From: an uncultured Gammaproteobacteria bacterium
GTDB lineage: Bacteria > Patescibacteriota > Microgenomatia > JAMCZE01
DNA length: 64,000 nt
Direction: 5' to 3'
NCBI GenBank assembly: GCA_964641255.1
Contig: CAZXMM010000001.1
Location: 79,757 to 143,756 of the forward strand
The translations under genes were made by a program, and so were the position numbers. Below, one piece after another: positions 3,577 to 31,423 of this stretch (the stretch's first letter is position 1; each line of letters opens with the position of its first letter). The notes beneath the pieces were generated by a model that saw only the letters and a program-made list of their open reading frames with translations, was not told the DNA's origin and did not search any database.

Positions 3577-3591
3577 GTAAGTAGTATCTCG

Positions 3592-9342: not shown

Positions 9343-11628
9343 ATGGAACCAAAGTACGATCCTAACAGTGTCGAGAGCAAGATCTACCAGATGTGGGAGA
9401 CGGGCGGCTATTTTAAACCCGCTATTAACCCCAAAAAGAAGCCCTTTACAATTGTCCTTCCTCCACCCAATGCCAGCGGCAAAATGCACACCGGTAATGT
9501 TTTGATGATTGCTATTGAAGATCTTTTAGTCCGTTACCACCGAATGAAAGGTGATCCCACCTTGTGGGTACCGGGAACCGACCACGCTGGAACAGAAACG
9601 CAAATTACCTTTGAGCGAGAATTAAAGAAGCAGGGTCACTCTCGTTTTGAATATGACCGAGAAACACTTTACCAAATGATTTGGGATTTCGTAATGCAAA
9701 ACAAAACGCTAATTGAAAGCCAGGTTAGACAAATGGGAGCTAGTGTTGATTGGAGTCGCTATACTTTTACCCTCGATGACAGGGTGGTAAAGACTGTACG
9801 CCAAACCTTTGCCAAGATGGCCGCGGAAAACCTCGTCTACCGCGATGACTACATTGTTAATTACTGCCCGATTTGTGGTACCACTTATGCTGATATCGAA
9901 GTGGAAATGAAAGAGCGAGTGGACTCTCTCTATTATATGAAGTATGGTCCCTTTACAATTGCGACGGTTAGACCAGAAAGTAAATTTAGAGATACCGCCC
10001 TCGCCGTGAATCCTAAAGACAAACGCTACAAGAACTACTTGGGTCAAACGCTGGAAATTATGGGACTGCTTGGACCAATCTCAATGACCGTTATTCCCGA
10101 TCCCGAAGTGGACCCAAAGTTTGGTACCGGCATTATGAAGGTAACCCCCGCTCATGATCCCCACGACTTCGAGCTAGGTAAAAAGTTTAATTTGCCAGTC
10201 ACTCCCATTATCGATCTCCAAGGGAGAATGGATTTTTCCTGGTATCTAAAGACCACCGGACAATCAGCAAAGTACCGAGCTCGGGCCGAAAATTACCACG
10301 GTAAAAAAGTGGTTGAGGCCAGAAAAATCATGGTTGAGGACCTAAAAGCCGACGGCCTGCTCATTAAAGTTGATGAAGCTTATACCCACTCGGTGCCAGT
10401 TTGTAAAGCGGGCCACGACATTGAACCAACTATTTTGCCTAACTGGTTTATCAGGGTTGAGAGCCTGAAAAAACCGGCCACCAAAGCGGTCACCAGGGGG
10501 AAAATAAAGATTTATCCGCCCTGGAGAAAAATTACTTACACTCGGTGGATGGAAAACATGCACGATTGGGCCATTAGTCGACAAAACGTCTGGGGAATTC
10601 GCATTCCGGCCTGGTATGATGTTTCCCAAAACCCCCAGATTACTGTGTCTTTCTTAAGTAAAACCCACGAAGTCGTATCAGGAACCCTTTCAGAACTGCT
10701 AAAAAACTACTCGTTTGAGGAAATTGAATCCGGTCTCCAAAAACTTATGGCACCAAAAGACGCCCGCCATATTATTAGTGAAAATAAACCAGCTGGTCAG
10801 TTTCTTCAATCCACCGATACTTTTGACACCTGGTTTTCATCCGGCCAGTGGCCGCTTGTAACTCTTGGTTACCCTAATTCTCTTGACTTTAAGTATTTCT
10901 ACCCCACTAGTGTTTTGGAGACAGGCTGGGAAATTCTCTCCCGCTGGGTCTCAAGAATGATCATGTTTGGCATCTATTTAACTGGCGATGTGCCCTTTAC
11001 CTCGGTCTATCTTCATGGACTAGTACGAGCTCTGGATGGACGAAAAATGAGTAAGAGTCTGGGGAACGTCATTAATCCTGATGACTACATCAGAGAATTC
11101 GGGGTTGATGCTCTCAGAATGGGACTGATTGCTGGTACCGCTAATGGTAGAGATTTTAATTTTCCTAAAGACAAAATCATTGCTTACCGCAACTTTGCTA
11201 ATAAGCTTTGGAACATTGGTCGTTTTATACTTTTGAGCTTTGAAAATAAAGACGTTCCATTTTATGAACCAGGGATGAGGGGACTCACCGCAAGTGACAA
11301 AGCTATTCTTAAACAGTTAAGTAGTACCATCAAAAAGGTCGGGGTCAGTCTCGAAAAATTTCGTTTCGCTCAAGCCGCAGAAATCATTTATCAATTTACC
11401 TGGCATGAATTTGCCGATAAATATTTAGAGGCTTCCAAAGAGCGGATCAGAAATGGTGACTTCGTTGTTCTATCAATTCTTCGCCATGTTTATCTAAGCT
11501 GTCTTACACTGCTTCATCCCTTTATGCCCTTTGTCACTGAGGAAATCTGGGGTAAGATGCCAACCAAAAGTAAGATCCCCCTAATCATTTCTTCTTGGCC
11601 GAATTTAAAACACTCTTTGGCGACATGA
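9343..11628 (+). CDS. valS: valyl-tRNA synthetase (class I aaRS), compact form lacking a long C-terminal coiled coil
   Basis: N-terminus follows the ValS pattern (Y-P-xx-VE-x-Y-x-WE-x-GYFKP ... PPPNASGKMHTGN ... GTDHAGTETQ). KMSKS is present (RKMSKSLGNVINP). 761 aa. Confidence 0.75.
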   Translation: MEPKYDPNSVESKIYQMWETGGYFKPAINPKKKPFTIVLPPPNASGKMHTGNVLMIAIEDLLVRYHRMKGDPTLWVPGTDHAGTETQITFERELKKQGHSRFEYDRETLYQMIWDFVMQNKTLIESQVRQMGASVDWSRYTFTLDDRVVKTVRQTFAKMAAENLVYRDDYIVNYCPICGTTYADIEVEMKERVDSLYYMKYGPFTIATVRPESKFRDTALAVNPKDKRYKNYLGQTLEIMGLLGPISMTVIPDPEVDPKFGTGIMKVTPAHDPHDFELGKKFNLPVTPIIDLQGRMDFSWYLKTTGQSAKYRARAENYHGKKVVEARKIMVEDLKADGLLIKVDEAYTHSVPVCKAGHDIEPTILPNWFIRVESLKKPATKAVTRGKIKIYPPWRKITYTRWMENMHDWAISRQNVWGIRIPAWYDVSQNPQITVSFLSKTHEVVSGTLSELLKNYSFEEIESGLQKLMAPKDARHIISENKPAGQFLQSTDTFDTWFSSGQWPLVTLGYPNSLDFKYFYPTSVLETGWEILSRWVSRMIMFGIYLTGDVPFTSVYLHGLVRALDGRKMSKSLGNVINPDDYIREFGVDALRMGLIAGTANGRDFNFPKDKIIAYRNFANKLWNIGRFILLSFENKDVPFYEPGMRGLTASDKAILKQLSSTIKKVGVSLEKFRFAQAAEIIYQFTWHEFADKYLEASKERIRNGDFVVLSILRHVYLSCLTLLHPFMPFVTEEIWGKMPTKSKIPLIISSWPNLKHSLAT

Positions 11629-11842
11629 AACTACACTGATCGAATTTTGGATTTATTCCACGACTCTTTTCGGGCCTTTACTTTATTGATAGCTAGGCAG
11701 AAAAATACGAAAAAAAGGTACATTATGTTTCCAAAACTTGGCAATAAAGGCGACGCTTAGGGGCTATCTCTTGGGTCGCTAGTTTCATGTAGACTAGCTA
11801 CTAAGACTGTTCGCAGCCCAATAAATCTACTACAATAATTGG

Positions 11843-12361
11843 GTGAATCTAGTTAAACTTTTGGCCACACTACGAAATTATCGGCAACTTTTTTTAGTCG
11901 GGTTGACACTAATCAGTGTACTAGTTTTAGTCTTGAATTTTTTGCAACCCTTTTCTTCCTTTGACTATCACCGCCAACAAGTTTTACTAACTCCCCACTC
12001 TCCCTTTGCTCACCTGGCTTTAGCTGAAGACTTTCAAAGCCACAATCAAACCAAACTGGCTAAGCTGGAGCTAGCCTTTATTACTAGCTTACCGCCCAGC
12101 GAGACCGCCCTACTAACCGATAGCCTTCTAAGGCTAAAGCGGCAGACAAAAGATAAAGATGGTTTGATCCAAAAACTTAAATCCCAAAGTTTGGTTTATG
12201 ACCACTATCCAAATTACCGTGACCTAGCCATGCAACATGCGCTCTGGTGGTGGCAACTTAAAAACAACCAGGAGGCGTTCCGTTTTTTTAGGCAAGCCGA
12301 GTCTTTAGATCCCAACAATTCAAGTGTGCAATCTCTGAAGCGGCTAATCACTTCGCAGTAG
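11843..12361 (+). CDS. hypothetical membrane-anchored protein (172 aa), possibly a TPR-like helical repeat
   Basis: One N-terminal TM helix. No motif recognised. Confidence 0.4.
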   Translation: MNLVKLLATLRNYRQLFLVGLTLISVLVLVLNFLQPFSSFDYHRQQVLLTPHSPFAHLALAEDFQSHNQTKLAKLELAFITSLPPSETALLTDSLLRLKRQTKDKDGLIQKLKSQSLVYDHYPNYRDLAMQHALWWWQLKNNQEAFRFFRQAESLDPNNSSVQSLKRLITSQ

Positions 12362-12363
12362 TT

Positions 12364-13056
12364 TTAGGTGGCTGACCCAGGAGTATCAGTAGTAGTTTCA
12401 CCTGGAGGAGGAGTCACAGTCGCGCCTTGCCCCTCTGTTACCGCCGCCGCCTCCTCGACTTTAGCCGCCTCTTCCTCTGCTAATTCCTTCTGGGTTTCCT
12501 GTGATACTGCGGAGGCAACTGAAAGAACCACCTCATCGGCTCCAGTTAGAATGGTAACCCCCACAGGCGCCGTTAGGTCACCAACAACAATGCGTTGGTC
12601 AACCATAGTCAGAGAAGAAGTATCGACAACGATCGCTTCTGGAAGGTTAGTGGGCAAAGCCTCCACCTCTATCTCATTTAGGGTTTGCAGAATAATGCCC
12701 ACACTACTAGTTACCGCAGGGGACTCCCCGACCAGCTGAAGAGGAACACTCGCCCGGATTTTTTCAGTTAAGCTAACGACTTGGAATTCAACGTGGAGTG
12801 GTAAACGGGTGGTGGGGTGATACTGAACGTGCTTAATTAAGGTCGGGTGTTTCTCGGTAGCGTAAGATAGCTCTATTAGTCCCGTGGCCCCGGCCCGCTT
12901 ATAAAGCGCCAAAAACTCTGCTAGGGATAAAGACAAAGAACTGGATTTGATTTCCCGACCGTACACACTGGCAGGCAAAAGTCCACTTGCCCGTTCTTTT
13001 TTAACCTTTTTCCCAGTAATAACTCTTATGCTGGCCTTTAGTGGGATCGCTTTCAT
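12364..13056 (-). CDS. rplY: 50S ribosomal protein L25 / general stress protein Ctc, with an acidic Ala/Thr-rich C-terminal tail
   Basis: MKAIPLKASIRVITGKKVKKERASGLLPASVYGRE ... HVEFQVV matches L25/Ctc. The stop is 2 nt from the stop of the convergent upstream ORF. Confidence 0.8.
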   Translation of the reverse strand: MKAIPLKASIRVITGKKVKKERASGLLPASVYGREIKSSSLSLSLAEFLALYKRAGATGLIELSYATEKHPTLIKHVQYHPTTRLPLHVEFQVVSLTEKIRASVPLQLVGESPAVTSSVGIILQTLNEIEVEALPTNLPEAIVVDTSSLTMVDQRIVVGDLTAPVGVTILTGADEVVLSVASAVSQETQKELAEEEAAKVEEAAAVTEGQGATVTPPPGETTTDTPGSAT

Positions 13057-13064
13057 AAGCTTAG

Positions 13065-15707
13065 TTACTTCCTTAAAAATTCTATTTCTAATATTTGGTC
13101 ACTACCAAGATCTGTATTATAGAGAACTCGCTGCGGGAAGACAAGCGCTCCCGCTACAATCCCAGTGGTGTCTCTCACTTTTCCAGCTCCGGCGATTTTC
13201 TTCCAATTTTGGGGGAACTCGACAGAAATATCGAGTGGGTCGGCACTCGTTCCCCCTTGCTTTAAAATTACCTGCCGGTAGGCGACACTCGCTTGTCTTT
13301 TAGTTATTGGCAGTGTCCACCGGTAAGTAAGTGTAATCTCTCGACTGCTTTTAATCGGAACTAGTACTAGCATGCCTACACTCAGATAAGAGTTGGTAGT
13401 TGATAGCGCTAGCGCCCCACTGGCCTCTACTGAAGTATGAACTAAAAATTTATCGGGTGGTACTTTGGCTAAAACATCTGCTGACAAAGTCGAAGAGATA
13501 GTCGCTGTTTTATCACCACTCATTGTTACCCCCGTTAGACGAGCCTTGGCTGGTAGCAAAAATCGCAGATAATTTTTATAATCGCCCGCTGGCCAGGCAA
13601 GAGATGGTGATTCGTTTTTCAAGTGGACCACGACCTTGGTCTCGGTGTCTCCACCCTCACCAATTGTAGTACTGACCCGCATTGCCCGTTTTACAAAATA
13701 ATTAGCTTTGTTGGCACCAAAATTAGCTTCCACTAGCATTAAACAGTTGGAGATGGCTGTACCACAAGAATGTCTGGTGATACTCCCCGACCAGCTGTTG
13801 GCTTCGACCCGCTCCTGGGCGGTACGATTATTGAAGAACAACATAATATGTTGTTCTCGTAGTCCCCGCTCTAGCGCTTGGGCAACTGCCAGATTGTTGA
13901 CTTTAGGGTCGTGAAGTAGGGTTTGGAGTAAGCTTTGTCCCACTGCTCCCAAATAATCACGTTTTTTGGTGGATCCCGGGAAAAAATTAATTTCTGAGGC
14001 GAACTCGGCTTTTTGAAAAAAATTTTCCGCTGTCACCTGATCGGCAAAATCCACCAGTGGTAGAGGTCCGGTTGCTCTAAGCAAATACTGAACCGCCTGA
14101 AGGTCGATCGCGATTACCCCATCCACCCTTTGTCCTGTTTCTTTTTCTAAAAAAAACTCCAATCGTTTAGCCGTTAGGGGAAAGTCTGGAGAAAAGTTTG
14201 CGTCTCTTAAAAACCAAGAGTTTTGTCCTAAAAAGTGAACAATCTCTGCCGGCGGGACCACTCGACCCTGAAGCTGACCATCGGCAGAATAGACATCATG
14301 GAAAACCAAATCTTTTACCACCCCCTCCTCTATTGTCAAAATAGCAAACGACCCAATAAATCCGCCGGTCGGTCTCAGCTCGGCACTGTTCTGAAAAACG
14401 AGCAAGTAGGTTCGACTTTGTTTAGTGGTCTTGAGATTGCCAGGGGACGAAATGGCTAGTAGTTCTGGTAAAACAGTTAAGATCCGGTCGGCAGAAATTA
14501 ATAATCCCCTAGCTCTAGCAATATCATCTGGGGCCCTAGTGACCAATTGAACCGGAAAACCAAGCCAGCTAAAAATACTACCCAGTGTTTGGATTTCGTT
14601 TGCTTTGAGCAAACCCTGGGCTAGTCCTAGTTCGTGATTAAGAGCCAGTAACTCTGGGTGTAAAGTCGCTACCTGCTGGGGTAACTCCTCCCGGTTATTT
14701 CCCGAAAAGATATCTCGAGCCAAATCAGTTACGTTCTTTTGCAGAATAGCCCCACGCTTAACTACTCCAGCTATCCGACTGCCCGACTCTCCAATCTCTA
14801 CAACTGGAGCTAAAATTGTTTGTCCCCATAGGCTAAGAGCCGAGACTTCCGTAGTGACAAACTTACCCCGAAGAAACACTCGTTCCGCCTCACCAGCTTG
14901 GTATGATGCTTGAAGAAATTCCCCCCGCCCTAAGGCGATCCGAGCCTGCAAAAGATGACTCACCCCACCACCATAAGCTAGCAGCGCCACTAAAAATGGA
15001 AGTACCAGAAAAAACACAGTCATTAGGAGCACCGCCCGCCAGCCAAGAACCAATCTGCGCCTGCCCCAATTGAAGCGATTTGGCTTTTGCTGACTAGCTC
15101 TAACGGACTTTTGACTTTTTTCCAAAGAAGCCATAACACTTTGGGTATTATGTAATCCTCGCAAGCGCAGGAAGGCTTCCCAACTTTCGGCCTGCTGACG
15201 ATTTCCTCCATAATGGTGCCCCGGACCCCCGCGAACCACAATAGTTTGTCTTTTCTTGGTCCACTGACCAAAACTAGCGTTGATACAGTCCTGTAAAAAG
15301 GCTTTGGGGGCGACAAGCACATTTTCGATTTCGCCAGCAAGGACCAGTGTCAAAACCTCGACCCGTTCGCCACTTGCCAACCTTAATAGTCGCTGCTCAA
15401 TTTCACTAGATAGACCGAGGCAGAGAAAAACAACCTTGGTTTTGCTACGCCTCGCTAGTGGCAAAACTTCTTGCCAAATTTTTGCTACCAAAGCGAGGCG
15501 ATCTTTAGGACTAACCAGCAGATAACAATAGTGGGGGGTCTCTAGAGCGTGCCATTTCTCGCTGGAATGCTCTAATAGTAGGGTACGTAACCCAGAAGCT
15601 TTTAGCTGTTCATTAAGATTGTGGGCTAGAACTCCCTGTCCAACAATTACCGCTAGGGGGTGCTTTTCATCGCGCTCAAAACGGATTGTTGGCTGGGCAG
15701 ACTGCAT
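13065..15707 (-). CDS. DUF4012 domain protein (880 aa): cytoplasmic N-domain, TM helix, large extracytoplasmic DUF4012 region
   Basis: YLLVFQNSAELRPTGGFIGSFAIL carries the hallmark ELRPTGGFIGS motif of DUF4012. One TM segment (LMTVFFLVLPFLVALLAYGG). Confidence 0.65.
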   Translation of the reverse strand: MQSAQPTIRFERDEKHPLAVIVGQGVLAHNLNEQLKASGLRTLLLEHSSEKWHALETPHYCYLLVSPKDRLALVAKIWQEVLPLARRSKTKVVFLCLGLSSEIEQRLLRLASGERVEVLTLVLAGEIENVLVAPKAFLQDCINASFGQWTKKRQTIVVRGGPGHHYGGNRQQAESWEAFLRLRGLHNTQSVMASLEKSQKSVRASQQKPNRFNWGRRRLVLGWRAVLLMTVFFLVLPFLVALLAYGGGVSHLLQARIALGRGEFLQASYQAGEAERVFLRGKFVTTEVSALSLWGQTILAPVVEIGESGSRIAGVVKRGAILQKNVTDLARDIFSGNNREELPQQVATLHPELLALNHELGLAQGLLKANEIQTLGSIFSWLGFPVQLVTRAPDDIARARGLLISADRILTVLPELLAISSPGNLKTTKQSRTYLLVFQNSAELRPTGGFIGSFAILTIEEGVVKDLVFHDVYSADGQLQGRVVPPAEIVHFLGQNSWFLRDANFSPDFPLTAKRLEFFLEKETGQRVDGVIAIDLQAVQYLLRATGPLPLVDFADQVTAENFFQKAEFASEINFFPGSTKKRDYLGAVGQSLLQTLLHDPKVNNLAVAQALERGLREQHIMLFFNNRTAQERVEANSWSGSITRHSCGTAISNCLMLVEANFGANKANYFVKRAMRVSTTIGEGGDTETKVVVHLKNESPSLAWPAGDYKNYLRFLLPAKARLTGVTMSGDKTATISSTLSADVLAKVPPDKFLVHTSVEASGALALSTTNSYLSVGMLVLVPIKSSREITLTYRWTLPITKRQASVAYRQVILKQGGTSADPLDISVEFPQNWKKIAGAGKVRDTTGIVAGALVFPQRVLYNTDLGSDQILEIEFLRK

Positions 15708-20907: not shown

Positions 20908-23070
20908 TCACTTTAGGCTCTCCAGCTCTGTAGCTAAGGCCTGAAAGAGGTTTTTATAAAAACGTAGTGCTCGATAATCACTGCTGCTACGAATCAATCC
21001 GCCAAAAAGCCGAGAAATACTCTCGGGCATATTACGATTATCTGTTCGCGCTAGCCCAGACTCACACACCTCAACAAATTCCGGTAGAATACTTGCTACC
21101 CAACTTTGGTTTCCGTCTAAAAAACCCCTTAGCCCGGGGCTAAGGGTAGACATTAGACGGTCTCGTGCTTCTTTTACTGGGTACAGTTGTTCTAGTCGTT
21201 TTGCCACGTTTTGGGGTATTTCTATAGCCAAATTGGGCTGGGCTAGAATTCGATTTCGCGTCACCGCGAGGGGGATTCTGGGATAAATCATGTTATCTAG
21301 TTGGTCATTAATGTCCCTCTTTCGCTTGGTCCCCCATAATACCGCTAGTTTTCGATGCAGCTCACTCAAGATCTCTTTTTGTTGGACTCCCCCCAGAGTG
21401 CCGAGTGCAATCTTAGCTAATGCTAATTGAAACTCCCCATTGCTTAGGTCCTCTCCACCCCAAGCCACTGCACCATCAGTAAAAAAATTACTTATCTGTT
21501 TTTTTGATTTTGGAGTTAATAACCCCCAGACCCTCAAAGCCTCGGCTTCCCAATTAGTGGTAGCCAGTAGTCGCTCGGTAAAAGGGTGGTCTGCATCGGT
21601 TATAACTAGTGAGGTACGAAGGGTACTTTTGTTAAAGGCGGATACCCCAATATTTCCCGAACTGGGTAATTCCTCAAGCGTCACTAGTCCATGGTCTGGC
21701 CCCACCGCGTCAGCAAGTCTAGTTGAACCGGCACCTAAAGTCACAAAATCTGCAATGGTTTGCTGGGTTTCCTGAGAAATTTCACCAACACGAACTTCCA
21801 GCTGGGCCACCTGATTAGGATCCTCGCCCAACTGCTTATCGGTAAGAACCACTAGGTCGGTCCTAGCTTCGTCAGGCTTGATTAATACAATTTCATCCCT
21901 CTGCATTACTTCTTTAACCTTTTTCTCACCTTCCTGAATCAAAATTTGGGTTATTGTTGTAGCCCGAAGTCTATTTCTGGCATTAAATCTGGCTACCAGT
22001 TCCGACTCTTGATCTGCCCTGTCTTGACCGCCTAGGTTAAAATCATTCTCTCCGGTTCGCAATCGCTCGGAAATTTGAGAGTCTAACGCTCGCAGCAACT
22101 CTTGAAAGTCCTCCTCGACGCCACCAACGTGTTCGGGTATAAAATTTCTCGCTAACCACATCGGGTCGGCCCCAAGCTCCCAAAGCATTGCCAACCGATC
22201 GGTTATTTGCTGGGCCGCAAACTGGGGATCAATTTTTCCGCCCAAACAATCAATCACATCAGAATGATTGGCTAGTGAGTGAGCAATTGTTTGATTGATT
22301 TCTCTGGATATGTAGCTCGTACCGGCATAGGCAAGCGCTTCAATATAGAGCGTGGCTGCATTGTTTTCATGAAGTTTCTTCAGCGGTGCCTCTTTAGCTG
22401 CTAAAGATCTTTGGTAAAAATAATTAATTGCAGCTCCAGCCAAAGACCACCCTCCCAGAGTCACAAGCGCATAGGCTAGTCTCAGTACAGGATTGGCATT
22501 TTGTCGCATCCACCATTTAGCAGCGTTTTCAAGCACCAGTGTAGCCTCTGCAGTATCTGCTGCCTGACCAAGATGGACTTGTTCGTGAAACAATGTGTCA
22601 ATATCTTCCCCGGGGACTAATCTTCGAAACCAATCTTTTAGTCCTAAATTGTCCAGCTGCGTTGAAACTAAAATAACATTGTTCCACCAATCAGCTAAAC
22701 CAAGCGCAGAAGCCCCGTCGCTTTTTCTTTGAATTAAGCCTTTCTTTGTTTCAACCCTTGGTCCGTCACCGCCGAGATTAGCCGCCTTAATTGATAAGGC
22801 AAATGGATCAAAGCCCAACCAGTTAACTTCCAAATCCGTCTTTTGCCCAACAGCCTGCACCACCTGGTCGTGTAGCCCTATCCAATCATCAGAACCGAGC
22901 CGGTCAATAACTGCATAATAGGGAGAGAAGTGGATGAGTTTGTCATTAGTTTCTGCCTCCAATCTAGAGGCGACCTCACTTAACCGATCCGCGTTTATAG
23001 AATGGGAGGTCAACTCCTCACCTTCCGCGTCTGCACCCACTTCATAATCACCAATTTTTTCATCAGCCAT
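20908..23070 (-). CDS. large hypothetical protein (720 aa) with one HExxH motif, located between rpmH and dnaA
   Basis: Long clean ORF. Acidic N-terminus, FHEQVHLGQ (HExxH), no TM helix or signal peptide, no other recognisable domain. Confidence 0.5.
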   Translation of the reverse strand: MADEKIGDYEVGADAEGEELTSHSINADRLSEVASRLEAETNDKLIHFSPYYAVIDRLGSDDWIGLHDQVVQAVGQKTDLEVNWLGFDPFALSIKAANLGGDGPRVETKKGLIQRKSDGASALGLADWWNNVILVSTQLDNLGLKDWFRRLVPGEDIDTLFHEQVHLGQAADTAEATLVLENAAKWWMRQNANPVLRLAYALVTLGGWSLAGAAINYFYQRSLAAKEAPLKKLHENNAATLYIEALAYAGTSYISREINQTIAHSLANHSDVIDCLGGKIDPQFAAQQITDRLAMLWELGADPMWLARNFIPEHVGGVEEDFQELLRALDSQISERLRTGENDFNLGGQDRADQESELVARFNARNRLRATTITQILIQEGEKKVKEVMQRDEIVLIKPDEARTDLVVLTDKQLGEDPNQVAQLEVRVGEISQETQQTIADFVTLGAGSTRLADAVGPDHGLVTLEELPSSGNIGVSAFNKSTLRTSLVITDADHPFTERLLATTNWEAEALRVWGLLTPKSKKQISNFFTDGAVAWGGEDLSNGEFQLALAKIALGTLGGVQQKEILSELHRKLAVLWGTKRKRDINDQLDNMIYPRIPLAVTRNRILAQPNLAIEIPQNVAKRLEQLYPVKEARDRLMSTLSPGLRGFLDGNQSWVASILPEFVEVCESGLARTDNRNMPESISRLFGGLIRSSSDYRALRFYKNLFQALATELESLK

Positions 23071-23194: not shown

Positions 23195-24604
23195 ATGGCT
23201 ACTAATGACGAGCTTAGCAAAATCTGGCATATTGTTCTTGGGGAACTAGAAGTAGAGCTGGGTAAAAGCAACTTCTCCCTCTATCTTAAAAACTCTGCTC
23301 TCCTAGCTCTTTCTGATGGGATAGCTACAATTGGTTTTCCCAGTAAGATTACGGGTGACCAGGCCAGCTCCAGATATTACGCCTTAATCCAAAATACTTT
23401 ACAAAAAATTAGCAAGGTGTCTCCTCTTAGTCTGATCTTCGAGGTTGATAGCAGCCTAGGGACCAAAAACCAGCACCCAGACAACAGTGACAGTTTTGGT
23501 CCCATTTTTAGTCTGCCCAAGGACGACTCCACCGCCTATACCGAGGCGGTTAAACGCTCTAGGTTGCGCCAAGATTTCAGCTTTGACGAATTTTGTGTCA
23601 GCACCAGTAACCAGCTCGCTTTTGCGGCCGCCCAGTCGGTGGGGAAAAATCCCGGCAAAAACTATAACCCGCTTTTCCTTTGGGGAGGTGTTGGGGTGGG
23701 AAAGACCCACTTAATGCAGGCAATTGGCCATGAGATTTTGCGCAAGAACCCCCGAGCTAGAGTCGTGTACGCTCCTGGTGAACAATTCACTAACGAAATA
23801 ATTGAGGGGATTAGGACCAAAAACACTCGGGAGTTTAAGGAAAAGTACCGAAGCGCTGACGCTCTACTGATTGATGATATCCAGTTTCTCTCGGGAAAAG
23901 ATACCGCGCAGGAAGAATTTTTCCATACTTTTAACGCCCTGCAGCAAAATGAAAAACAGGTGGTCCTTACTTCGGACCGCAAACCGGTAGATATCAAATT
24001 TATCGAAGATCGTCTCAGAAGTCGTTTTGAGGGTGGTCTAGTAGCGGACATATCCACACCAGACTCAGAACTCAAAACCGCTATCTGTATATCAAAAGCC
24101 CATAAACGAGGAATAGAGCTATCCAGTACCTTGGCTGCAGCCATTACTAATAATGTAGATAATATTCGAAGCCTGGAGGGTACCCTCCAACGGGTAGTCA
24201 CTGAGTCAGAAATCAGAAACACCCCCATTACCGAAGACCTTATTGTTCGGGTCCTGGGTCTTCCAGAAAATTTGAGTCAGGGTAATGGTGGAGTGGGAAA
24301 CCGACTGGACAGTCGACTAGTTTTAGATACGGTCTGTGCCTTTTATAATCTCCCAATCAAATTAATTAAGGGCGAAAAACGGGATAAACCCATTGCTCAG
24401 CCACGCCAAATCATTATGTACCTGCTCAAAAAAAACACTGGAATGACTCTTGAGGAAATAGCTGATTTTTTGGGAGGCCGTGACCACACCACCATCATGC
24501 ACGGAGTTAAAAGGGTAGAGGGACTACTACAAAACAACGACCGAATTCGAGGCGAGATCAGCCAACTAGAAAACCGTCTTCATTTGTTACACCAAACCTC
24601 CTGA
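23195..24604 (+). CDS. dnaA: chromosomal replication initiator protein DnaA
   Basis: Walker A GGVGVGKTHLM, the AAA+ box and the C-terminal helix-turn-helix DNA-binding domain (IAQPRQIIMYLLKKNTGMTLEEIADFLGGRDHTTIMHGV). Confidence 0.95.
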   Translation: MATNDELSKIWHIVLGELEVELGKSNFSLYLKNSALLALSDGIATIGFPSKITGDQASSRYYALIQNTLQKISKVSPLSLIFEVDSSLGTKNQHPDNSDSFGPIFSLPKDDSTAYTEAVKRSRLRQDFSFDEFCVSTSNQLAFAAAQSVGKNPGKNYNPLFLWGGVGVGKTHLMQAIGHEILRKNPRARVVYAPGEQFTNEIIEGIRTKNTREFKEKYRSADALLIDDIQFLSGKDTAQEEFFHTFNALQQNEKQVVLTSDRKPVDIKFIEDRLRSRFEGGLVADISTPDSELKTAICISKAHKRGIELSSTLAAAITNNVDNIRSLEGTLQRVVTESEIRNTPITEDLIVRVLGLPENLSQGNGGVGNRLDSRLVLDTVCAFYNLPIKLIKGEKRDKPIAQPRQIIMYLLKKNTGMTLEEIADFLGGRDHTTIMHGVKRVEGLLQNNDRIRGEISQLENRLHLLHQTS

Positions 24605-24913: not shown

Positions 24914-26059
24914 ATGGAAATTGAAATACTCCAGGAAAATTTAGCCACTGCCCTTAGTAAAGTTTGTCGCTTGATCACCTCTCGGCCGCCGATTCCTATT
25001 CTTACCCACGTATTCCTCGAAGCTAAAAGCGGCCAATTAACCCTTATTGCTTCGAACACAGAGACTACGGTTACTGCCCAAATTGGGGCCAAAGTAGTTA
25101 GTGAGGGGGCGTTTACCTTGCCAGCCAAGATTTTGTTCGAGTTGGTATCTTCCCTGCCTGCAGACAAGCTGCTTTTAAAAGTGGCAGAGGCTCAACTCGA
25201 GATTAAGGCCAAAAGTTTTCGGGGCAAGCTAAGTGGGACTAGTGGGGAAGAGTTTCCTAAACTTATTCCTCTGGACGATCAAAAAAAAGGAACCATGCAG
25301 CTTAGACGAGAGGATTTTGAAGGCATGATTTCTCATACCGTCTTTGCTGCTGCTACTGATGAGAGTAGGGCAGTCCTAACTGGTGTCCTGGTGCGGCTTT
25401 CTAAAGACACGGTTACTCTTGCCGCAACAGACGGGTTTCGTCTGTCACAGGTTACACTTAGTGATGTAAAAACTGTGGGTTTAGAAAACGAAACATTTAT
25501 TATCCCCGCCCATTCTTTATCAGAAATGCTGCGTTTTCTTGCTGATGGAACAGAAAAAGAGACGGCCCAGATCTCCCTGGATATTTATGGTGACAGTCAG
25601 GTTGCACTGTCTTTTGGTGACTCAAAAATTTATTCACGCCTGATTGCGGGTAAGTTTCCTAATTTTGAGTCAATTATCCCGACTTCCTTTGAGGGGAAAT
25701 TTACCCTAGAGAGCGAGGCGTTTAGTAAGACCCTTCGGCTTGCGGCAATTTTTGCCCGAGAAAGTGCCAATATTGTCAAACTGACCCTAACTCCAAAAAC
25801 TTCGGTGGTGTCGTTGTCAGCTAACGCCGCCCAAGTAGGGGAAAATGAAACCACGACAGAAATTGTGTGGGACAAGACTCCGTCTGAAGCTCTCACCATT
25901 GCCTTTAACTACCGCTATCTTTTGGATTTTGTCGGTAACATGGGCAAGGATAAAGAGCTGACATTTGAACATACCGGGCCACTAGCTCCGGGAGTGTTTA
26001 GGGTCAAAGGCAACGCTAATTATTTCCACGTAGTAATGCCGGTTCGGGTGCAAGGCTAG
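24914..26059 (+). CDS. dnaN: DNA polymerase III subunit beta (sliding clamp)
   Basis: N-terminus MEIEILQENLATALSKV. Three-domain, roughly 380-aa clamp pattern. Conserved dnaA-dnaN synteny. Confidence 0.9.
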   Translation: MEIEILQENLATALSKVCRLITSRPPIPILTHVFLEAKSGQLTLIASNTETTVTAQIGAKVVSEGAFTLPAKILFELVSSLPADKLLLKVAEAQLEIKAKSFRGKLSGTSGEEFPKLIPLDDQKKGTMQLRREDFEGMISHTVFAAATDESRAVLTGVLVRLSKDTVTLAATDGFRLSQVTLSDVKTVGLENETFIIPAHSLSEMLRFLADGTEKETAQISLDIYGDSQVALSFGDSKIYSRLIAGKFPNFESIIPTSFEGKFTLESEAFSKTLRLAAIFARESANIVKLTLTPKTSVVSLSANAAQVGENETTTEIVWDKTPSEALTIAFNYRYLLDFVGNMGKDKELTFEHTGPLAPGVFRVKGNANYFHVVMPVRVQG

Positions 26060-26070
26060 AATGGCTGACT

Positions 26071-26856
26071 ATGGATGTCTTAACCTCGACCAATAACCCC
26101 CTCGTTAAACGCATTAAAAAGCTGTTACTTGATCGGGTATATCGCTATGAAGAGGGAGCCTTTTGGTGTGATGGGGTGAATTTCGTTAGTCAGGCAATTG
26201 ATAATGGTTGGGAAATAGACACTCTTGTGTTTGTTCCCCAAAAAATAGACAGCGACTTTAAAAGAGCGGTTTGGACTAAGGCGTTGGGTGTCAAAAAAGT
26301 AGCTGTTTCTGAATCTGTCTACCAGGCACTCTCGAGTAAAAAAGACATTCAAGGTGTGGGGGCGATTATTAAGATGAAAACGGGCGACACTCTTGAGCGG
26401 GGATTAGGAGTAGTTCTTGAACATCTCCAAACACCCGGTAATCTCGGTACCATTATGCGAACTTGTTTGGCGTTTGATATTAAATGCCTCTATCTTATTG
26501 CTCCAAGTGTAGATCCCTTTAATCCCGATACGGTAAGGGCATCAATGGGGGCGCTGTTTGGATTAAAAATTGTAGTGATTGCTGACTTTGCAGGTTTTGC
26601 CAGTCAAATTAAGAAGAACCTGCGTTACTGCATCGGTACCTCACTTCAGGAAGCAACGCTCCTGTCTAATTACTCAAGACAGCTAGAGGGAACGGAACTT
26701 ATTTGGTTTGGTAATGAGGCCAAGGGACTATCAATAGAAGCTAGGCGGTTATGCCAGGATAGTCTTAAAGTGCCGATTAGTCCCATAGTAGATTCTTTAA
26801 ACGTTGCCGAGTGTGCCGCCATCATTCTTTACACCCTGCTCCACGGGAGTAGATGA
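26071..26856 (+). CDS. SpoU/TrmH-family RNA 2'-O-methyltransferase
   Basis: LEHLQTPGNLGTIMRTCLAFD ... VDPFNPDTVRASMGALF ... LNVAECAAIILY are SPOUT class motifs. The 3' end overlaps the convergent VirB4-like gene by 60 nt. Confidence 0.8.
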   Translation: MDVLTSTNNPLVKRIKKLLLDRVYRYEEGAFWCDGVNFVSQAIDNGWEIDTLVFVPQKIDSDFKRAVWTKALGVKKVAVSESVYQALSSKKDIQGVGAIIKMKTGDTLERGLGVVLEHLQTPGNLGTIMRTCLAFDIKCLYLIAPSVDPFNPDTVRASMGALFGLKIVVIADFAGFASQIKKNLRYCIGTSLQEATLLSNYSRQLEGTELIWFGNEAKGLSIEARRLCQDSLKVPISPIVDSLNVAECAAIILYTLLHGSR

Positions 26857-28872
26857 CGACGCCGCAGTAGGCGTAGTATCGACCTGTGCGGAGGGGGTGG
26901 GGCCATCTGGATTAATCATTGGTACTTCGGGATTATTGTCTACACTCGCTTCGGAAGCGGCCCGCTCTGCCGCTTCTCTTTTTTGAGCTAAGTCACGAGG
27001 ATTAGTACTGATAAGATTGTACTCTTCTGGCGAAGCAACAACTCGCATGGCAACGTGGGAGGATCCGGCAAAAAATAGTCCTTCGCCAACGTTTGAGGAG
27101 AGGAGAAGGCTTTTCTCTCCCTCGGATAGATAAAATACCTCTGAAACTTTATCAATCGCCGCGGGAGACTGTTTCATTAAAATTTGAATCGAGCTATTAG
27201 TCACCACAGTTTTACCAAGGTCTGTTGCCAAAAAGTCCTCGATATCTTGGGTAATCGTTGTCAGGCCAAGATAATATTTTCTGGCTCGCTTGGCAAAGTT
27301 CCATAAGAATTCAGCTGAGGCTTGGTTTTTCATCAGGTACCAGGCCTCATCCACGATTAGGATACGCCGATGTAAATCTTTCTTAACGGAGTTCCATACA
27401 AAGTCCATGATGATAAAGATAGCGAGACTTCTTAATTGGTCCTCGAGATTCTTAAACGAGAAGACTGTAAAGGGGTTATTAAGTTGTAGGTTGCTTCGTT
27501 GATTAAAAATTGTGCCAAAGCTTCCTTTGACGAATTTTTCGAGACGCAGAGCAATATTTTGGGCTTTTTCTGTTTCCATTCCCACCAAAACTTTATAGAA
27601 GTCTTCCAAAATTGGCGGTTCCTTGCTGTGGGTTTTTATATCATAGGTGATTCCCTTTTCGTGATAGGTAAGCTCTAGGGCGTTATGGATAATGGCGTCT
27701 TCCTCGGCCGTAGTGTCACCGACCATGATTTTAATAAGTCGCGTGAGAGTGAAGCCAATTTTATATTGCAAGTCATTTTCTTGGGGATCGTCGTTGGTAC
27801 CAGCCAAATCAAAGGGGTTGATATGGGTATTACTACTAAAGGAGAAAGAAATATAATCACCACCCACTGATCTGGCTAGAGTTTCGTACTCTTCTTCCGG
27901 ATCAATAATGATGACTCTCGTGTCAAACATTAAGGCTCGCAGGGCTTCGAGTTTCACTAAGAAACTTTTCCCTCCGCCGGATTTACCCAAAACTACTTCG
28001 TTAGCATTTTCCAGACTAAAACGGTCGAAGATGATGAGTGACTCATTATGTTCATTGATACCGTAGAGCACCCCCTCATTAGCTGTCAGCTCTGAGGAGG
28101 TAAAAGGAAAGGTAGTGGCAAGGGAAGTAGTGTCCATGTTCCGGGTGATCATGAGATTGTCCTGACAAAGGGGCTGGGTAGTTTTAAAGCCGTCCTCCAT
28201 TTGCAGAGTGGCCTTTTTGCCATTAAGAAGGAGTGATCCTAGAGTAGAGGCTACTTGCTTACTGATTTGGTCGAGGTCGGCTACTGAAGTAGCTGAAATA
28301 GTGAAGTAGAGACCAAACTGAAAGAACCGCTCCGCTCCTTTAGCTAATTGTTCCTGCAAAGCCAGGGCATCGTCTAGAGCTACTTGAACACCAGGATCAA
28401 TGACTCGTCCCCGTTTAATATCACTTTCGATGGTCGCTTCCATCTCGGCAATTTTTCGTTTTAGGTCGGACAAAATATCCCGAGATTCAACTGGATAGAT
28501 AAACATGCCAATATCAATCGAGGAGTCAAAATCAATAATGGGGTCTAACCAGTTGGCAGCAACAAAGCGGGGATAGCCAGCGATAAAAAGTGTTCTTAGA
28601 TAAGTATCACCTATTTTGATGTGGTCAAAGTCCACCTCGATCTTTTCTGGAGCGATTAAGTCTACAACCGACTCAAAAGCTTCACTTGGTTTCATAGTGG
28701 CAGGATCTGGTTTCGTAGTGACCAAAGACGCGTCACTCGTAGGAATCCCAGCGATGGGTTCCCACTCGGGTTCGGCTTTTGGGACATCGCTAACTTTTGC
28801 TCGCCCTGGTTTTGCTAAATCGGCAGCAATTTTAGCAACCGGTGCTTTCTTTTTTAAAAAGGGTAGATTCAT
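26797..28872 (-). CDS. VirB4/TraC/TrbE-family T4SS ATPase, middle and ATPase domains
   Basis: GYPRFVAANWLDPII (VirB4 middle-domain motif), Walker A LGKSGGGKSFLV and Walker B RILIVDEAWYLM. A low-complexity Pro/Thr/Ser C-terminal tail follows. Confidence 0.8.
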   Translation of the reverse strand: MNLPFLKKKAPVAKIAADLAKPGRAKVSDVPKAEPEWEPIAGIPTSDASLVTTKPDPATMKPSEAFESVVDLIAPEKIEVDFDHIKIGDTYLRTLFIAGYPRFVAANWLDPIIDFDSSIDIGMFIYPVESRDILSDLKRKIAEMEATIESDIKRGRVIDPGVQVALDDALALQEQLAKGAERFFQFGLYFTISATSVADLDQISKQVASTLGSLLLNGKKATLQMEDGFKTTQPLCQDNLMITRNMDTTSLATTFPFTSSELTANEGVLYGINEHNESLIIFDRFSLENANEVVLGKSGGGKSFLVKLEALRALMFDTRVIIIDPEEEYETLARSVGGDYISFSFSSNTHINPFDLAGTNDDPQENDLQYKIGFTLTRLIKIMVGDTTAEEDAIIHNALELTYHEKGITYDIKTHSKEPPILEDFYKVLVGMETEKAQNIALRLEKFVKGSFGTIFNQRSNLQLNNPFTVFSFKNLEDQLRSLAIFIIMDFVWNSVKKDLHRRILIVDEAWYLMKNQASAEFLWNFAKRARKYYLGLTTITQDIEDFLATDLGKTVVTNSSIQILMKQSPAAIDKVSEVFYLSEGEKSLLLSSNVGEGLFFAGSSHVAMRVVASPEEYNLISTNPRDLAQKREAAERAASEASVDNNPEVPMINPDGPTPSAQVDTTPTAASSSTPVEQGVKNDGGTLGNV

Positions 28873-28879
28873 ATTATTG

Positions 28880-29563
28880 CTATGACGCGGTACTGTTACT
28901 ATTACTTGTCTTCGTAGTCACGGGGGGTGGGGTAGGACTAGCAGCGGTGCGGTGATTGTAGATATCATGAAACAGGTCGATTAATTCCACAGTAGTTAGT
29001 TGTCTAGCCCGAAGCCCCAGTCGTCCGAGCTGTCTTAAAATATGATCCCGCTTGGGTAGTAGTGCGGTTTTAGCTTTTTCGACAATAGTTTCGGCCGGGA
29101 GTGGAAGACCGGTCGTTTTTTTCTTAAATAGTCCGCCGGCGCTGGAAGCCACCCCAAGCTCCAAAAAGCTAAAAGGAATGGCAATGTAAAATTTTTTATC
29201 GAGCACGTTGTTATTTTTTACTGTATTTGCAATGAAATCGCGATATTTTGCGATCTGATCAGCCAGGAGAGGATTTTTTTGTTTTTCTCGAGCCTCTTCA
29301 AGGAGAGCCATATAGGCTGAAACATCCTTTTGTTGGCTACGTACCACAATTTGAATGGAAAAATTGAGCGAGTTTAATAGACCAGCGTAAGCGTAGATAA
29401 TCGACTCCTGTTCTTGTTCTGACAGCAGGCCAAAATTAACCGCCGACACGGCAATTATTAGAGCCACCGAGCCGTCTTTGATGATAACCAGGTCGTCAAC
29501 AATATCCGCCACCTGCAGATGATCTTGTGTAGTTCCTTTAATAGCTATTTTAGTTACATCCAT
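28880..29563 (-). CDS. VirB4-family N-terminal domain, encoded as a separate 227-aa ORF
   Basis: TTQDHLQVADIVDDLVIIKDGSVALIIAVSAVNFGLLSEQEQESIIYAYAGLLNSLNFSIQIVVRS follows the conserved N-terminal pattern of Gram-positive-type VirB4 homologues (PrgJ/TcpF/ConE). Its stop at 28880-28882 lies 7 nt upstream of the ATPase ORF start at 28872, in a different frame. Confidence 0.6.
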   Translation of the reverse strand: MDVTKIAIKGTTQDHLQVADIVDDLVIIKDGSVALIIAVSAVNFGLLSEQEQESIIYAYAGLLNSLNFSIQIVVRSQQKDVSAYMALLEEAREKQKNPLLADQIAKYRDFIANTVKNNNVLDKKFYIAIPFSFLELGVASSAGGLFKKKTTGLPLPAETIVEKAKTALLPKRDHILRQLGRLGLRARQLTTVELIDLFHDIYNHRTAASPTPPPVTTKTSNSNSTAS

Positions 29564-29577
29564 ATGCGCTAGCGTTA

Positions 29578-30834
29578 CTAGGTTACCGCTATCTTGGGTT
29601 TGATTTCTAGTGGTGGCATGACCCCACCACTGAGAGTAATTTCCAACAGATCAAAATTAAAATTCTGTTTTTCCAGCTCTAAATAGTAGGTACCATTCTC
29701 TAGGGGAGTGCTCCCGATAAACTGGCCGACCTTGTTAGCTTTAAGTGCCCGAATCGAATTGCCGGCTTTGTCTTTGATGATAATGATGGTTCCGTCAATT
29801 GGGTTATTGTTTTGGTCGAGGACCACCCCGTTTATGACATTAGGTATTTCTGTAAGAGTGATGGGGGTAGGAGGCTTGATCACCTTATCGACTACCCGAA
29901 TCTGAGGTGGGCGGCGTTCAATAACTGGCATTTGATAGGCAGTAGTAGTTAGTGGGGCAACTCGCTGGCTGGTAATTTGCGACCGAAGGTTGGTTATTTG
30001 GCTGCTCAGTTTGCTCTTTTCTAGAGTCAAGGCGTCTAATTTTTCTTGCTCTCGGGGCGATAGTTTACCTACCAAAACCAGACTGTTTTTAAGCTCGTCA
30101 ATTTGCATCATCAGCGCCTTGCTTTGGTTGACAAGCTCGTCAACTAGCGCCTCGTTCTTAGTCAGTTCTGAGGCGTTCTTCTCGAGTTTTTCCGCCGAGG
30201 TGGCACGACGTCTTGCCTCCAAAGCGTCAATTGTCACCACCTCCTTAGGGGGAATGTTGTCCTTTGGCTCATTTAATTTTTCCTGACGGATTTTTTCTAG
30301 GGCATCGATAGACACAATGGTTTGTCTCGACAAGTCCTCTTGAACCGGTGGGGTTACTGGGGTGGTATCAGTAAGAGGTAGGGTCGTGCGGTTGGCCATT
30401 AATTGTTGTACGTTGATTTCTCCACCACCCTCAGGTGGTTTTGGGGCGCTAGTGTTTTGTGGTTGGGCCATAGTAATCGGTGTAAAGTTTAATTGCGGGG
30501 CGCTGGGTAATGATTTTTTTTCAGTTGGAGCTGCTGTTTTGGAACCTTGTCGTTTCCAAATATAGACAGTTGGTTTATAGATAGCTCTAAAAAAATTAAC
30601 CAACCAAATGTCTAGTGGCCTTTCTTCGATGGGCAAAAAGGCCAGAGCGACCCCAAAGAGGGCAAAAAAGATGGCGAAGGGATACTTAAGAACCGGATGC
30701 CAATTGGCAATATAGAAAACATAAGCCAGTATGGCCCCACCAGCTAGTTCTCCAAACTGTTTGAGGGTCATGTCACCGACCAGTTTGAACTTAAATCCAG
30801 TAATGTCTTGGGGGACAGCGTGTTGTTCCATCAA
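29578..30834 (-). CDS. PrgI/VirB3-like T4SS membrane protein fused to a coiled coil and a C-terminal carboxypeptidase-regulatory-like beta-sandwich domain
   Basis: N-terminus VPQDITGFKFKLVGDMTLKQFGELAGGAILAYVFY resembles the PrgI family (VPKDIR.YE.KF.GPFT.K.F..IAGG). Next come two TM helices, a Pro/Thr linker, a roughly 150-aa heptad-rich coiled coil (ELKNSLVLVGKLSPREQEKLDALTLEKSKLSSQITNLRSQ), then NGVVLDQNNNPIDGTIIIIKDKAGNSIRALKANKVGQFIGSTPLENGTYYLELEKQNFNF. Confidence 0.55.
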   Translation of the reverse strand: MMEQHAVPQDITGFKFKLVGDMTLKQFGELAGGAILAYVFYIANWHPVLKYPFAIFFALFGVALAFLPIEERPLDIWLVNFFRAIYKPTVYIWKRQGSKTAAPTEKKSLPSAPQLNFTPITMAQPQNTSAPKPPEGGGEINVQQLMANRTTLPLTDTTPVTPPVQEDLSRQTIVSIDALEKIRQEKLNEPKDNIPPKEVVTIDALEARRRATSAEKLEKNASELTKNEALVDELVNQSKALMMQIDELKNSLVLVGKLSPREQEKLDALTLEKSKLSSQITNLRSQITSQRVAPLTTTAYQMPVIERRPPQIRVVDKVIKPPTPITLTEIPNVINGVVLDQNNNPIDGTIIIIKDKAGNSIRALKANKVGQFIGSTPLENGTYYLELEKQNFNFDLLEITLSGGVMPPLEIKPKIAVT

Positions 30835-30931
30835 TAATTACCCGAACGATGATTCTCCCTCAGGCGAAGAAATACAGTGGTCGGGCAGTACTAAAATATC
30901 GTTATTCTTAGACTATCCTAACAACCCAAAT

Positions 30932-31423
30932 ATGAAAAACAAGGGGCGGAGATTTTCACAAAGTAATATAATACCTTTATCGATGAACGAAGACTGTTTC
31001 CACCTGGGCGTAAAAGCGTTAATTAGGAACTTGTCTGGGAAGATCCTCCTGTTGAAGGTTAACCCGGCTCAGTTAAAAAATTATTCGGGGGAAGCCTATT
31101 GGGACATTCCAGGAGGCAGAGTCCAAAGAGGGGCGTCAGTGGAAGAAACTTTAAGACGCGAGGTTGAAGAAGAAACTGGGATTACCAACATTAAAGCCAC
31201 CAAACTCGTAGCTACCATACTTTCAAATATAAGGATTCCGGTACAAAACGGTGACGTGGGACTTCTCCTTTCTGTTTATAGTTGTCAGTTGAGCGAAGAG
31301 CCAAGTACAATTAGGTTAAGCGGCGAACACACTGAAGCGGGGTGGTTTTTCCCGAAAGAGGCGTCGGAGCTATTAAAAGTGAAATACCCCGAGGAGTTTA
31401 CCGATATGGTTGCCATTTTATAA
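30932..31423 (+). CDS. NUDIX hydrolase
   Basis: Nudix box GGRVQRGASVEETLRREVEEETGI (GX5EX7REUXEEXGU). The ORF-track start at 30731 was rejected because it overlaps the divergent PrgI-like gene. ATG 30932 is preferred, with ATG 30983 possible. Confidence 0.7.
   Translation: MKNKGRRFSQSNIIPLSMNEDCFHLGVKALIRNLSGKILLLKVNPAQLKNYSGEAYWDIPGGRVQRGASVEETLRREVEEETGITNIKATKLVATILSNIRIPVQNGDVGLLLSVYSCQLSEEPSTIRLSGEHTEAGWFFPKEASELLKVKYPEEFTDMVAIL

Follow-up and report, generated by a model that had tools for sequence, protein, structure and literature searches.

A conserved accessory module fused to VirB3 in the chromosomal type IV secretion operon of Microgenomates-type Patescibacteria

How the stripped-down, relaxase-less type IV secretion systems (T4SS) of the Patescibacteria work is a puzzle, and the T4SS is reported to be essential for epibiotic growth in the one member of this group that has been genetically tested, as summarised in PMC12102498 and PMC12857230. 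A component that bears on this puzzle is encoded in a 64,000-nt stretch of DNA (hereafter the window; contig CAZXMM010000001.1 of GenBank assembly GCA_964641255.1, forward-strand positions 79,757 to 143,756), where one minus-strand open reading frame (ORF) joins a PrgI/VirB3-like N-terminus to parts that canonical VirB3 proteins do not carry. The locus raises the question of whether this protein is a genuine gene product and, if so, on which side of the membrane its additional parts work. A sequence-only reading had suggested that they project a binding domain outward, in the manner of a stalk or adhesin. Our favoured explanation, which we hold with moderate confidence, is that the product of the ORF is the VirB3 (PrgI-family) subunit in the inner membrane of a chromosomal T4SS, C-terminally fused to a second conserved component of the operon, and that this module lies in the cytoplasm close to the ATPase.

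The ORF was present on the minus strand at 29578..30834, where the sequence-only reading had placed it, and had 418 amino acids (aa) when counted from a TTG codon (ORF listing of the window). This TTG at 30834 is probably not the true start. The second codon is an ATG at 30831, and because an identical database protein of 417 aa (P0001) and all homologues begin at this ATG, with M-E/K-Q-H, we place the complete coding sequence (CDS) of the fused VirB3/PrgI-accessory protein at 29578..30831 on the minus strand (417 aa; stop codon 29578-29580). Residue numbers in the sequence-only reading, counted from the TTG, are one too high. An AlphaFold2 (AF2) model of the 417-aa protein was built from an 86-sequence alignment and reached a mean confidence (pLDDT) of 76.9. 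Pfam, AF2 and Foldseek together bore out the four-part layout that had been proposed, with a PrgI/VirB3-like N-terminus, a Pro/Thr linker, a coiled coil and a CarboxypepD_reg-type beta-sandwich.

The N-terminal part (residues 1-95; 30547..30831, minus strand) was identified as a PrgI/VirB3 domain. PF12666 (PrgI) matched residues 7-88 with 28.6 bits (E = 2.2e-6; gathering score 27) over profile positions 2-86 of 91, and relatives mostly scored 27-47 bits, with a few under the cutoff. In the AF2 model, two helices at residues 23-41 (TM1) and 46-65 (TM2) form a hairpin with a loop of about 4-5 residues between them and are followed by a third helix at residues 72-95 (to 98 at most), with pLDDT values up to 97; on the minus strand these correspond to 30709-30765, 30637-30696 and 30547-30618, respectively. 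Hydropathy on the Kyte-Doolittle (KD) scale was 2.13 for TM2 and 1.22 for TM1 (family mean). The N-terminal tail (residues 1-22) was nearly invariant, and family members were on average 71% identical to the window protein over the PrgI part as a whole. The Pfam match, the two transmembrane helices with a C-terminal alpha-helix (AF2, hydropathy), and the position of the gene upstream of trsD-like and virB4 genes on one strand are all shared with the VirB3 family, as represented by PrgI of pCF10, TrwM of R388 and VirB3 of Agrobacterium; the N-in/C-in topology and the VirB4-anchoring role of that family would presumably be shared as well. The difference lies in size, since canonical VirB3 proteins are of 10-15 kDa with short cytoplasmic tails, and pCF10 PrgI has 117 aa (PMC12857230), whereas about 320 residues comprising linkers, coiled coil and beta-sandwich follow the VirB3 part here. 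The exceptional length noted in the sequence-only reading was therefore real, and the 417-aa protein, although it has a VirB3 domain, is no canonical member of the family.

In canonical VirB3 both termini are cytoplasmic; the protein contacts the N-terminal domain of the inner-ring VirB4 subunits and so ties that hexamer to the membrane, and VirB3-VirB4 fusions exist in some systems (PMC12857230; PMC12624023). Across the family of the window protein, we counted on average 2.7 lysine and arginine residues in the N-terminal tail, 1.0 in the loop and 4.6 after TM2, a distribution that, judged from the sequences, favours an N-in/C-in hairpin. No transmembrane segment past residue ~120 was found by hydropathy in 120 homologues. 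Neither a signal peptide nor an LPXTG motif or C-terminal anchor was found in the window protein. A surface adhesin or stalk would be recognised by an export signal or C-out topology together with a wall or surface anchor, and the hairpin here favours C-in.

The C-terminal part (residues 329-412; 29596..29847, minus strand) is a transthyretin-like, CarboxypepD_reg-type beta-sandwich. PF13620 (CarboxypepD_reg) matched residues 334-393 of the window protein below its gathering score (21 bits against 32.3; E = 4.4e-4), and two relatives passed the cutoff (P0094, 38.1 bits; P0141, 38.5 bits). AF2 placed strands across residues 331-410 with pLDDT >90, and a Foldseek search of the PDB retrieved the transthyretin-like domain of carboxypeptidase N/D (2nsm, E = 1.3e-5), with 3mn8, 1qmu, CnaB2 (8bdw; target-normalised template-modelling score, TM-score, 0.67-0.69), BcpA pilin, SdrD-B and transthyretin as further neighbours. 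Model and search agreed on a seven-stranded, prealbumin-like beta-sandwich, so that the fold named in the sequence-only reading held although the Pfam match in the window protein itself was sub-threshold. No T4SS or TonB protein was among the 50 PDB structural neighbours listed, and the target protein matched no NCBIfam family and no phage family in PHROGs. Residues G335, R361, A362, G369, F371, T375, Y382 and F393 were invariant, and the mean identity of the domain to the window protein was 60%, compared with 19-31% in the regions between the end domains and 19% in the linkers. The beta-domain is thus among the two best-conserved parts of the protein, which suits a conserved internal partner more than a host receptor that varies.

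Between the two end domains, and on the same strand, lie a Pro/Thr-rich disordered linker (residues 96-200; 30232..30546), a helical hairpin or coiled-coil region (residues 201-295; 29947..30231) and a second, short Pro-rich linker (residues 296-328; 29848..29946) that ends in the conserved lead-in to the beta-domain, ..PNVINGxV. The first linker was delimited by pLDDT, composition, spacer length and a motif described below; residues 96-174 were predicted to be disordered (AF2 pLDDT <50), and the linker region contained 16% Pro and 10% Thr across the family. The spacer between the end domains was hypervariable, with 125-477 aa among 81 genome loci. A Pro-rich stretch of this kind need not lie outside the cell, because TrsD and VirB4 of these loci, which are cytoplasmic, also bear Pro/Ser/Thr-rich tails. 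In the central region, two long helices (residues 201-254 and 259-295, pLDDT >90) were modelled as an antiparallel hairpin, and a crude, home-made heptad scan exceeded the 95th percentile of shuffles at residues 221-257 and 260-292. The coiled coil of the sequence-only reading is thus present, while its length of about 150 residues did not hold, as the span is ~70-95 residues. The same crude scan detected a coiled coil in 54 of 81 relatives, indicating that this element is common yet dispensable. A search of the PDB with sequence profiles returned coiled-coil composition matches only (best E = 6e-4, a designed protein) and no T4SS protein.

Two side observations concern this region. A short helix motif occurs twice in the linker, as SIDALEKIR (residues 174-182) and TIDALEARR (residues 200-208), at about 30208-30312; in the 86 aligned relatives, conservation of L178, R182 and L204 was 90% or higher, and a strict motif of this type was found in 12 of the 81 wider loci and in 0 of 31 proteins in which the module is encoded separately from PrgI. 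Moreover, a 475-aa 'conserved membrane protein' in the PDB (8qox_B; weak profile match, E = 0.004) has both CarboxypepD_reg-like repeats and a long coiled coil, and is an analogue in architecture only.

The same fusion, whose presence in related genomes had been proposed as a check, proved to be widespread. A word-indexed search yielded at least 483 homologue clusters, many with both Pfam domains and many aligned over 97-100% of the query, and relatives were found in 285 of the GTDB species genomes scanned. Their source names included Microgenomates, Gottesman-, Davies-, Woese- and Beckwithbacteria and WWE3. All 81 genome loci that were read carried one complete ORF that opens with the PrgI domain and closes with the beta-domain at the extreme C-terminus; these ORFs were 310-656 aa long, and lengths of up to 937 aa were reached among database representatives. 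TrsD was found downstream in 79 of the loci and VirB4 in 76, with dnaN nearby in 55 and dnaA in 49. In an independent sample of metagenomes, anchored on TrsD, the fused gene lay directly upstream in 54 of 54 loci with enough upstream DNA, and 14 truncated contigs had the beta-domain right before trsD; the 12 remaining loci, with <560 nt upstream, were uninformative. Moreover, the window ORF itself was recovered with the same 417 aa on three independently assembled contigs, namely one 950-kb NCBI contig and two Logan contigs. These results show that the fusion is genuine and evolutionary.

Short PrgI proteins of 95-157 aa, close relatives of the fused N-terminal domain, were considered as canonical stand-alone forms and rejected. 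They were judged to be fragments, because they occurred on tiny contigs or on a 2x-coverage contig in which several genes are split by frameshifts. This low-coverage contig (ctg31261_2x_l in ENA; locus L082) has this operon too, but its PrgI, beta-domain, VirB4 and DnaA sequences are all in pieces, and it is a source of spurious 'short PrgI' database entries. As a separate observation, many of the contigs of loci L002-L081, which are Patescibacteria by their operon and dnaA/dnaN synteny, bear the title 'uncultured Gammaproteobacteria' or 'Pseudomonadales bacterium' in public records, which looks wrong.

The fused gene is the first of a prgI-trsD-virB4 operon in which all genes are on the minus strand, separated by gaps of 14 nt and then 7 nt. 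The second gene (28880..29563) starts 14 nt past the stop of the fused gene and encodes a TrsD-like protein of 227 aa, which matched TraC_F_IV (weakly), PF26593 (TraC-like) and NCBIfam TrsD (E = 7.6e-8, below that family's cutoff). The third gene (26797..28872) encodes a VirB4 ATPase of 691 aa, identified by Pfam P-loop_TraG (2.8e-33) and by the monoderm conjugation family conju_CD1110 of NCBIfam (393.7 bits; cutoff 325), of which it covers model positions 186-735 of 752 only. Since the TrsD-like protein matched positions 4-117 of the same CD1110-type VirB4 model, the N-terminal domain of VirB4 appears here to be split off as a gene of its own. Adjoining the operon are dnaN (24914-26059), dnaA (23195-24604), rnpA, yidC and jag, with dnaN and dnaA within 4.3 kb and rnpA within ~6 kb. 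With its monoderm-type VirB4, TrsD alongside and origin-proximal position, the system is the chromosomal Patescibacteria T4SS already described (PMC12102498).

We then found that the module also exists as a gene of its own. An exhaustive search with residues 300-417 against 1.84 billion representative proteins gave 1666 hits at E<=1e-3, 983 of them at E<=1e-10, with almost all of the top 150 hits having the domain at their very C-terminal end, and the PrgI domain was missing from about half of the new representatives. Of the top representatives without PrgI, 38 were full-length proteins of 364-1878 aa with a Met start, and 37 of these had a single C-terminal beta-domain; named relatives of this split form included Woykebacteria and "Patescibacteria group". 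The split-form beta-domains were 45-53% identical to that of the window (E = 1e-20 to 1e-24). In the four split cases that were looked up, the gene order was prgI (161-227 aa), the module protein (440-1000 aa), trsD and virB4, and PF12666 matched the PrgI proteins of these lineages with 39-47 bits. In L084 and in L087/L088, virB4 is followed by recF, dnaN, dnaA, rnpA, yidC and jag; L083 is too short to show the genes past virB4, and L086 continues with other genes. The split-form modules are genuine separate genes, as a perfect AAGGAGG Shine-Dalgarno sequence lies 7 nt upstream of the module ATG in L083, the prgI and module genes overlap by 4 nt in different frames in L084 and L086, and upstream extension of the split-form ORFs is impossible. 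None of the 38 proteins had a hydrophobic N-terminus, the maximum 12-residue KD in the first ~50 aa having a median of 0.35 and a highest value of 1.45, and in 37 no 19-residue window reached the KD threshold of 1.6 (maximum 1.69).

Since the module is a separate gene in other lineages, the window gene is a fusion of two neighbouring genes of the T4SS operon, or the split forms are fissions of it. Fusion and fission pairs are classical evidence that parts act together. Many split-form proteins (L083-L088; P0183, P0187, P0241, P0141 and others) share an N-terminal region of ~110 aa (..YPGKPLxHRFxPTE..ASEVxFxPVxT..DKNxYVxPVxN..), which matched nothing in the PDB and nothing significantly in Pfam, where the best hit, seen for 1 of 12 members, had E = 0.033. 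Because the fused proteins are without this region, they are not simple read-throughs of the split arrangement, and the region may provide a docking function made needless by covalent fusion. An apparent resemblance, seen by eye, between the split N-terminal motif (..HRFxPTE.., ..FxPVxT..) and the window linker was rejected, as a hidden Markov model of the region gave no match in 201 fused proteins (best E = 0.31). A neighbour-joining tree of the beta-domains, made for counting fusions and fissions, contained at least 3 split groups; it was poorly resolved (88 residues) and is not relied on.

Such a module is not described in the papers that were searched. Quinonero-Coronel et al. (2025; PMC12102498), in the main census of these systems in Patescibacteria, report VirB4, TrsD and PrgI/VirB3 near dnaA, and the systems described there resemble that of the window in their monoderm, MPF-FATA-like VirB4, in the adjacent TrsD and PrgI/VirB3 genes and in their location beside dnaA, dnaN and rnpA. 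They differ in that the coiled-coil/beta-sandwich module goes unmentioned: the words 'carboxypeptidase' and 'coiled' each have 0 occurrences in the text of the census. No paper linking PrgI with CarboxypepD_reg was found within the literature searched, in agreement with the sequence-only reading, which had recognised no described T4SS component in the protein. The census places only 22.6% of the VirB3 homologues of Microgenomatia close to virB4, and its Table S3 lists VirB4, TrsD, a type IV coupling protein (T4CP) and VirB2, but not VirB3, for Gottesmanbacteria GW2011_GWC1_43_10 (PMC12102498). In this genome (contig LCEX01000017.1; locus L015) we found a 440-aa fused protein at 2979-4301 on the plus strand, directly upstream of trsD and with a PrgI score of 31 bits. 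The long fused form thus seems to have escaped the census there, and it seems to have been systematically missed in Microgenomatia.

Plasmid-borne systems offer further comparisons, and on pIP501 the gene order is traC-traD-traE. The systems of pIP501 and pGO1 (trsC-trsD-trsE) share with the window the order VirB3-like, TrsD/TraD, VirB4 (PMC12857230) and differ in having no coiled-coil/beta-sandwich module between these genes or fused to them. VirB3-VirB4 fusions, for example of Campylobacter plasmids, are alike in that the VirB3 C-terminus is joined to a partner on the cytoplasmic side, as far as PMC12624023 and PMC12102498 describe them; there the partner is the ATPase, whereas here it is an accessory module and VirB4 and the TrsD-like protein are separate genes. 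The window protein had no tblastn match among the plasmids of PLSDB, indicating that no classical conjugative plasmid carries it. VirB10 and TonB consist of a membrane anchor, a Pro-rich extended region, a helical segment and a C-terminal beta domain, a layout to which the window protein is superficially alike. They have a single N-in/C-out transmembrane helix and act in the periplasm, whereas the window protein has a two-helix hairpin anchor and a transthyretin-like C-terminal fold, and the split form of its module is without an anchor; a VirB10/TonB-like scaffold is therefore not what was found. A layout to set beside a cytoplasmic module is that of FliH/SctL and the peripheral stalks of V/A-ATPases, membrane-linked subunits that hold secretion or rotary ATPases and in which a coiled coil and a C-terminal globular head stand beside a hexameric ATPase. 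This is an analogy only, a 'works like' model, and no sequence or fold relationship was found; a rigid stator is unlikely because the tether is long and disordered.

Several neighbouring features of the window complete the description of the locus. The cumulative GC skew has its minimum at 24-26 kb, beside dnaA and dnaN, which is consistent with a chromosomal replication origin inside the window. VirB6, VirB2 and T4CP were not found among the 34 larger window ORFs scanned, several smaller ORFs lying outside the scan. A divergent NUDIX ORF, called mechanically at 30731-31423 on the plus strand, enters the 5' end of the fused CDS by ~100 nt; this overlap is not real, because residue 91 is the first of the NUDIX domain and the gene as publicly called has only 163 aa. 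Between rnpA and dnaA, a 720-aa ORF (20908-23070, minus strand) has no transmembrane segment and no Pfam or NCBIfam match, and among the 81 related loci it occurred only in the one identical to the window. After virB4, the window has a SpoU methyltransferase, where subsets of the loci (13 and 12 loci) have a protein of 717-928 aa with 2-3 predicted transmembrane segments (for example 11989-14142, plus strand, in L010, and 11614-14400, plus strand, in L041). The latter could be a further T4SS component, absent from the window.

On which side of the membrane does the module work? It probably works inside the cell near the secretion ATPase, and a surface adhesin is not favoured, because the split form has no signal, VirB3 is N-in/C-in and no further transmembrane segment occurs in the 120 homologues. 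By analogy with canonical VirB3, the hairpin would insert N-in/C-in, and the post-transmembrane helix and the invariant N-terminal tail may bind the N-terminal domain of VirB4, here split off as the TrsD-like protein; from such an insertion and binding it would follow that the tethered module hangs on the cytoplasmic face. The beta-sandwich could then dock onto a conserved partner at the machine's base, candidates being the TrsD/VirB4 ATPase ring (in a stator- or scaffold-like manner), a substrate or a coupling factor, and the coiled coil may pair neighbouring subunits of a presumed VirB3 hexamer. Split proteins presumably dock non-covalently through their extra N-terminal region, and fusion would take the place of such docking. 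Several points weigh against a cytoplasmic module. The order of anchor, Pro-rich segment, coiled coil and beta-domain resembles that of wall-spanning surface proteins; most structural neighbours of the beta-domain (carboxypeptidase D/N, CnaB, pilins, SdrD-B) are extracytoplasmic; TM1 is only moderately hydrophobic, which leaves room for a single-span N-in/C-out arrangement; and the absence of signal peptides from the split proteins was judged from hydropathy only. We also entertain, tentatively, a stronger version, in which the module, fused or separate, would be an unrecognised core subunit of the Microgenomates-type T4SS that replaces classical parts absent or undetected here, either the VirB8/VirB10 tails holding the VirB4 ring or a coupling-protein-like substrate receptor. 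In its boldest form the module would be threaded through the machine and so become part of the cell-cell contact structure needed by these obligate epibionts.

An extracytoplasmic stalk or adhesin, as the sequence-only reading had imagined, would use PrgI as an anchor only, with the linker crossing the wall and the coiled coil projecting the beta-sandwich to the host, the peptidoglycan or a pilus. We consider this unlikely. It draws on the same structural neighbours, mostly extracellular stalk or binding domains, and on the modest hydrophobicity of TM1, and some relatives have Pro/Glu/Lys-rich linkers of up to ~450 aa that are reminiscent of TonB-like spacers. Such a stalk might possibly also replace a VirB8/VirB10-type envelope scaffold, which is hard to find in this class: VirB6 is scarce in Microgenomatia, the few VirB8 homologues of the phylum are almost all from the class ABY1 (PMC12102498), and no VirB10 homologue is known in monoderm systems (PMC12102498/PMC12857230). 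However, a stalk needs an N-out/C-out or single-span topology, contrary to that of VirB3 and to the distribution of lysine and arginine, and neither an additional transmembrane segment in any of the 120 homologues nor an LPXTG motif or C-terminal anchor provides for it. The split-form proteins, too, are without signal peptide or transmembrane segment by hydropathy, with one of the 38 reaching KD 1.69 in a 19-residue window. Moreover, a beta-domain this strongly conserved is not what a host-receptor adhesin would lead one to expect, and a spacer that varies from 125 to 477 aa is unfit for a fixed envelope span. Projection of a binding domain to the outside was therefore not borne out.

The missing Sec signals and the extracellular flavour of the fold could both be reconciled if the module were exported by the machine itself, the split form being a T4SS substrate and the fused form a tethered substrate, with its linker in the channel, that ends in the pilus or contact structure. 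A disordered linker of 125-477 aa could span a channel, and the split forms do have a conserved N-terminal region of their own. We nevertheless regard export as very improbable: a VirB3-tethered substrate has no precedent known to us, the channel would be blocked by six such chains, nothing in the sequences specifically supports it, and the conserved, obligatory position in the operon suits a structural subunit better than cargo. An assembly or annotation artefact, in which prgI and an accessory gene were joined by a missed stop or a frameshift error, is effectively refuted. The two parts are indeed separate genes in some lineages, and L082 shows that frameshifts split genes on a low-coverage contig. 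Nonetheless, the identical ORF on three independent contigs, one of 950 kb, the complete fused ORFs in all 81 genome and 54 metagenome loci and the lack of the ~110-aa region typical of split proteins stand against a chimera, the condition under which the sequence-only reading would have had to be abandoned. A VirB3 subunit with a cytoplasmic, ATPase-proximal module thus remains the explanation that we favour.

Taken together, VirB3 is encoded in these genomes by the gene that precedes trsD-virB4, and the module, whether in the same gene or in the next, is obligatory and part of the machine. What is new is an undescribed, conserved accessory component that makes the protein an architectural variant of a known T4SS subunit, the T4SS itself being already known. 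For annotators, this provides a rule for finding missed VirB3 proteins, namely to look at the gene upstream of trsD-virB4. For T4SS researchers, the fusion/fission pair shows which proteins work together and adds a new conserved component to the secretion system of these bacteria.

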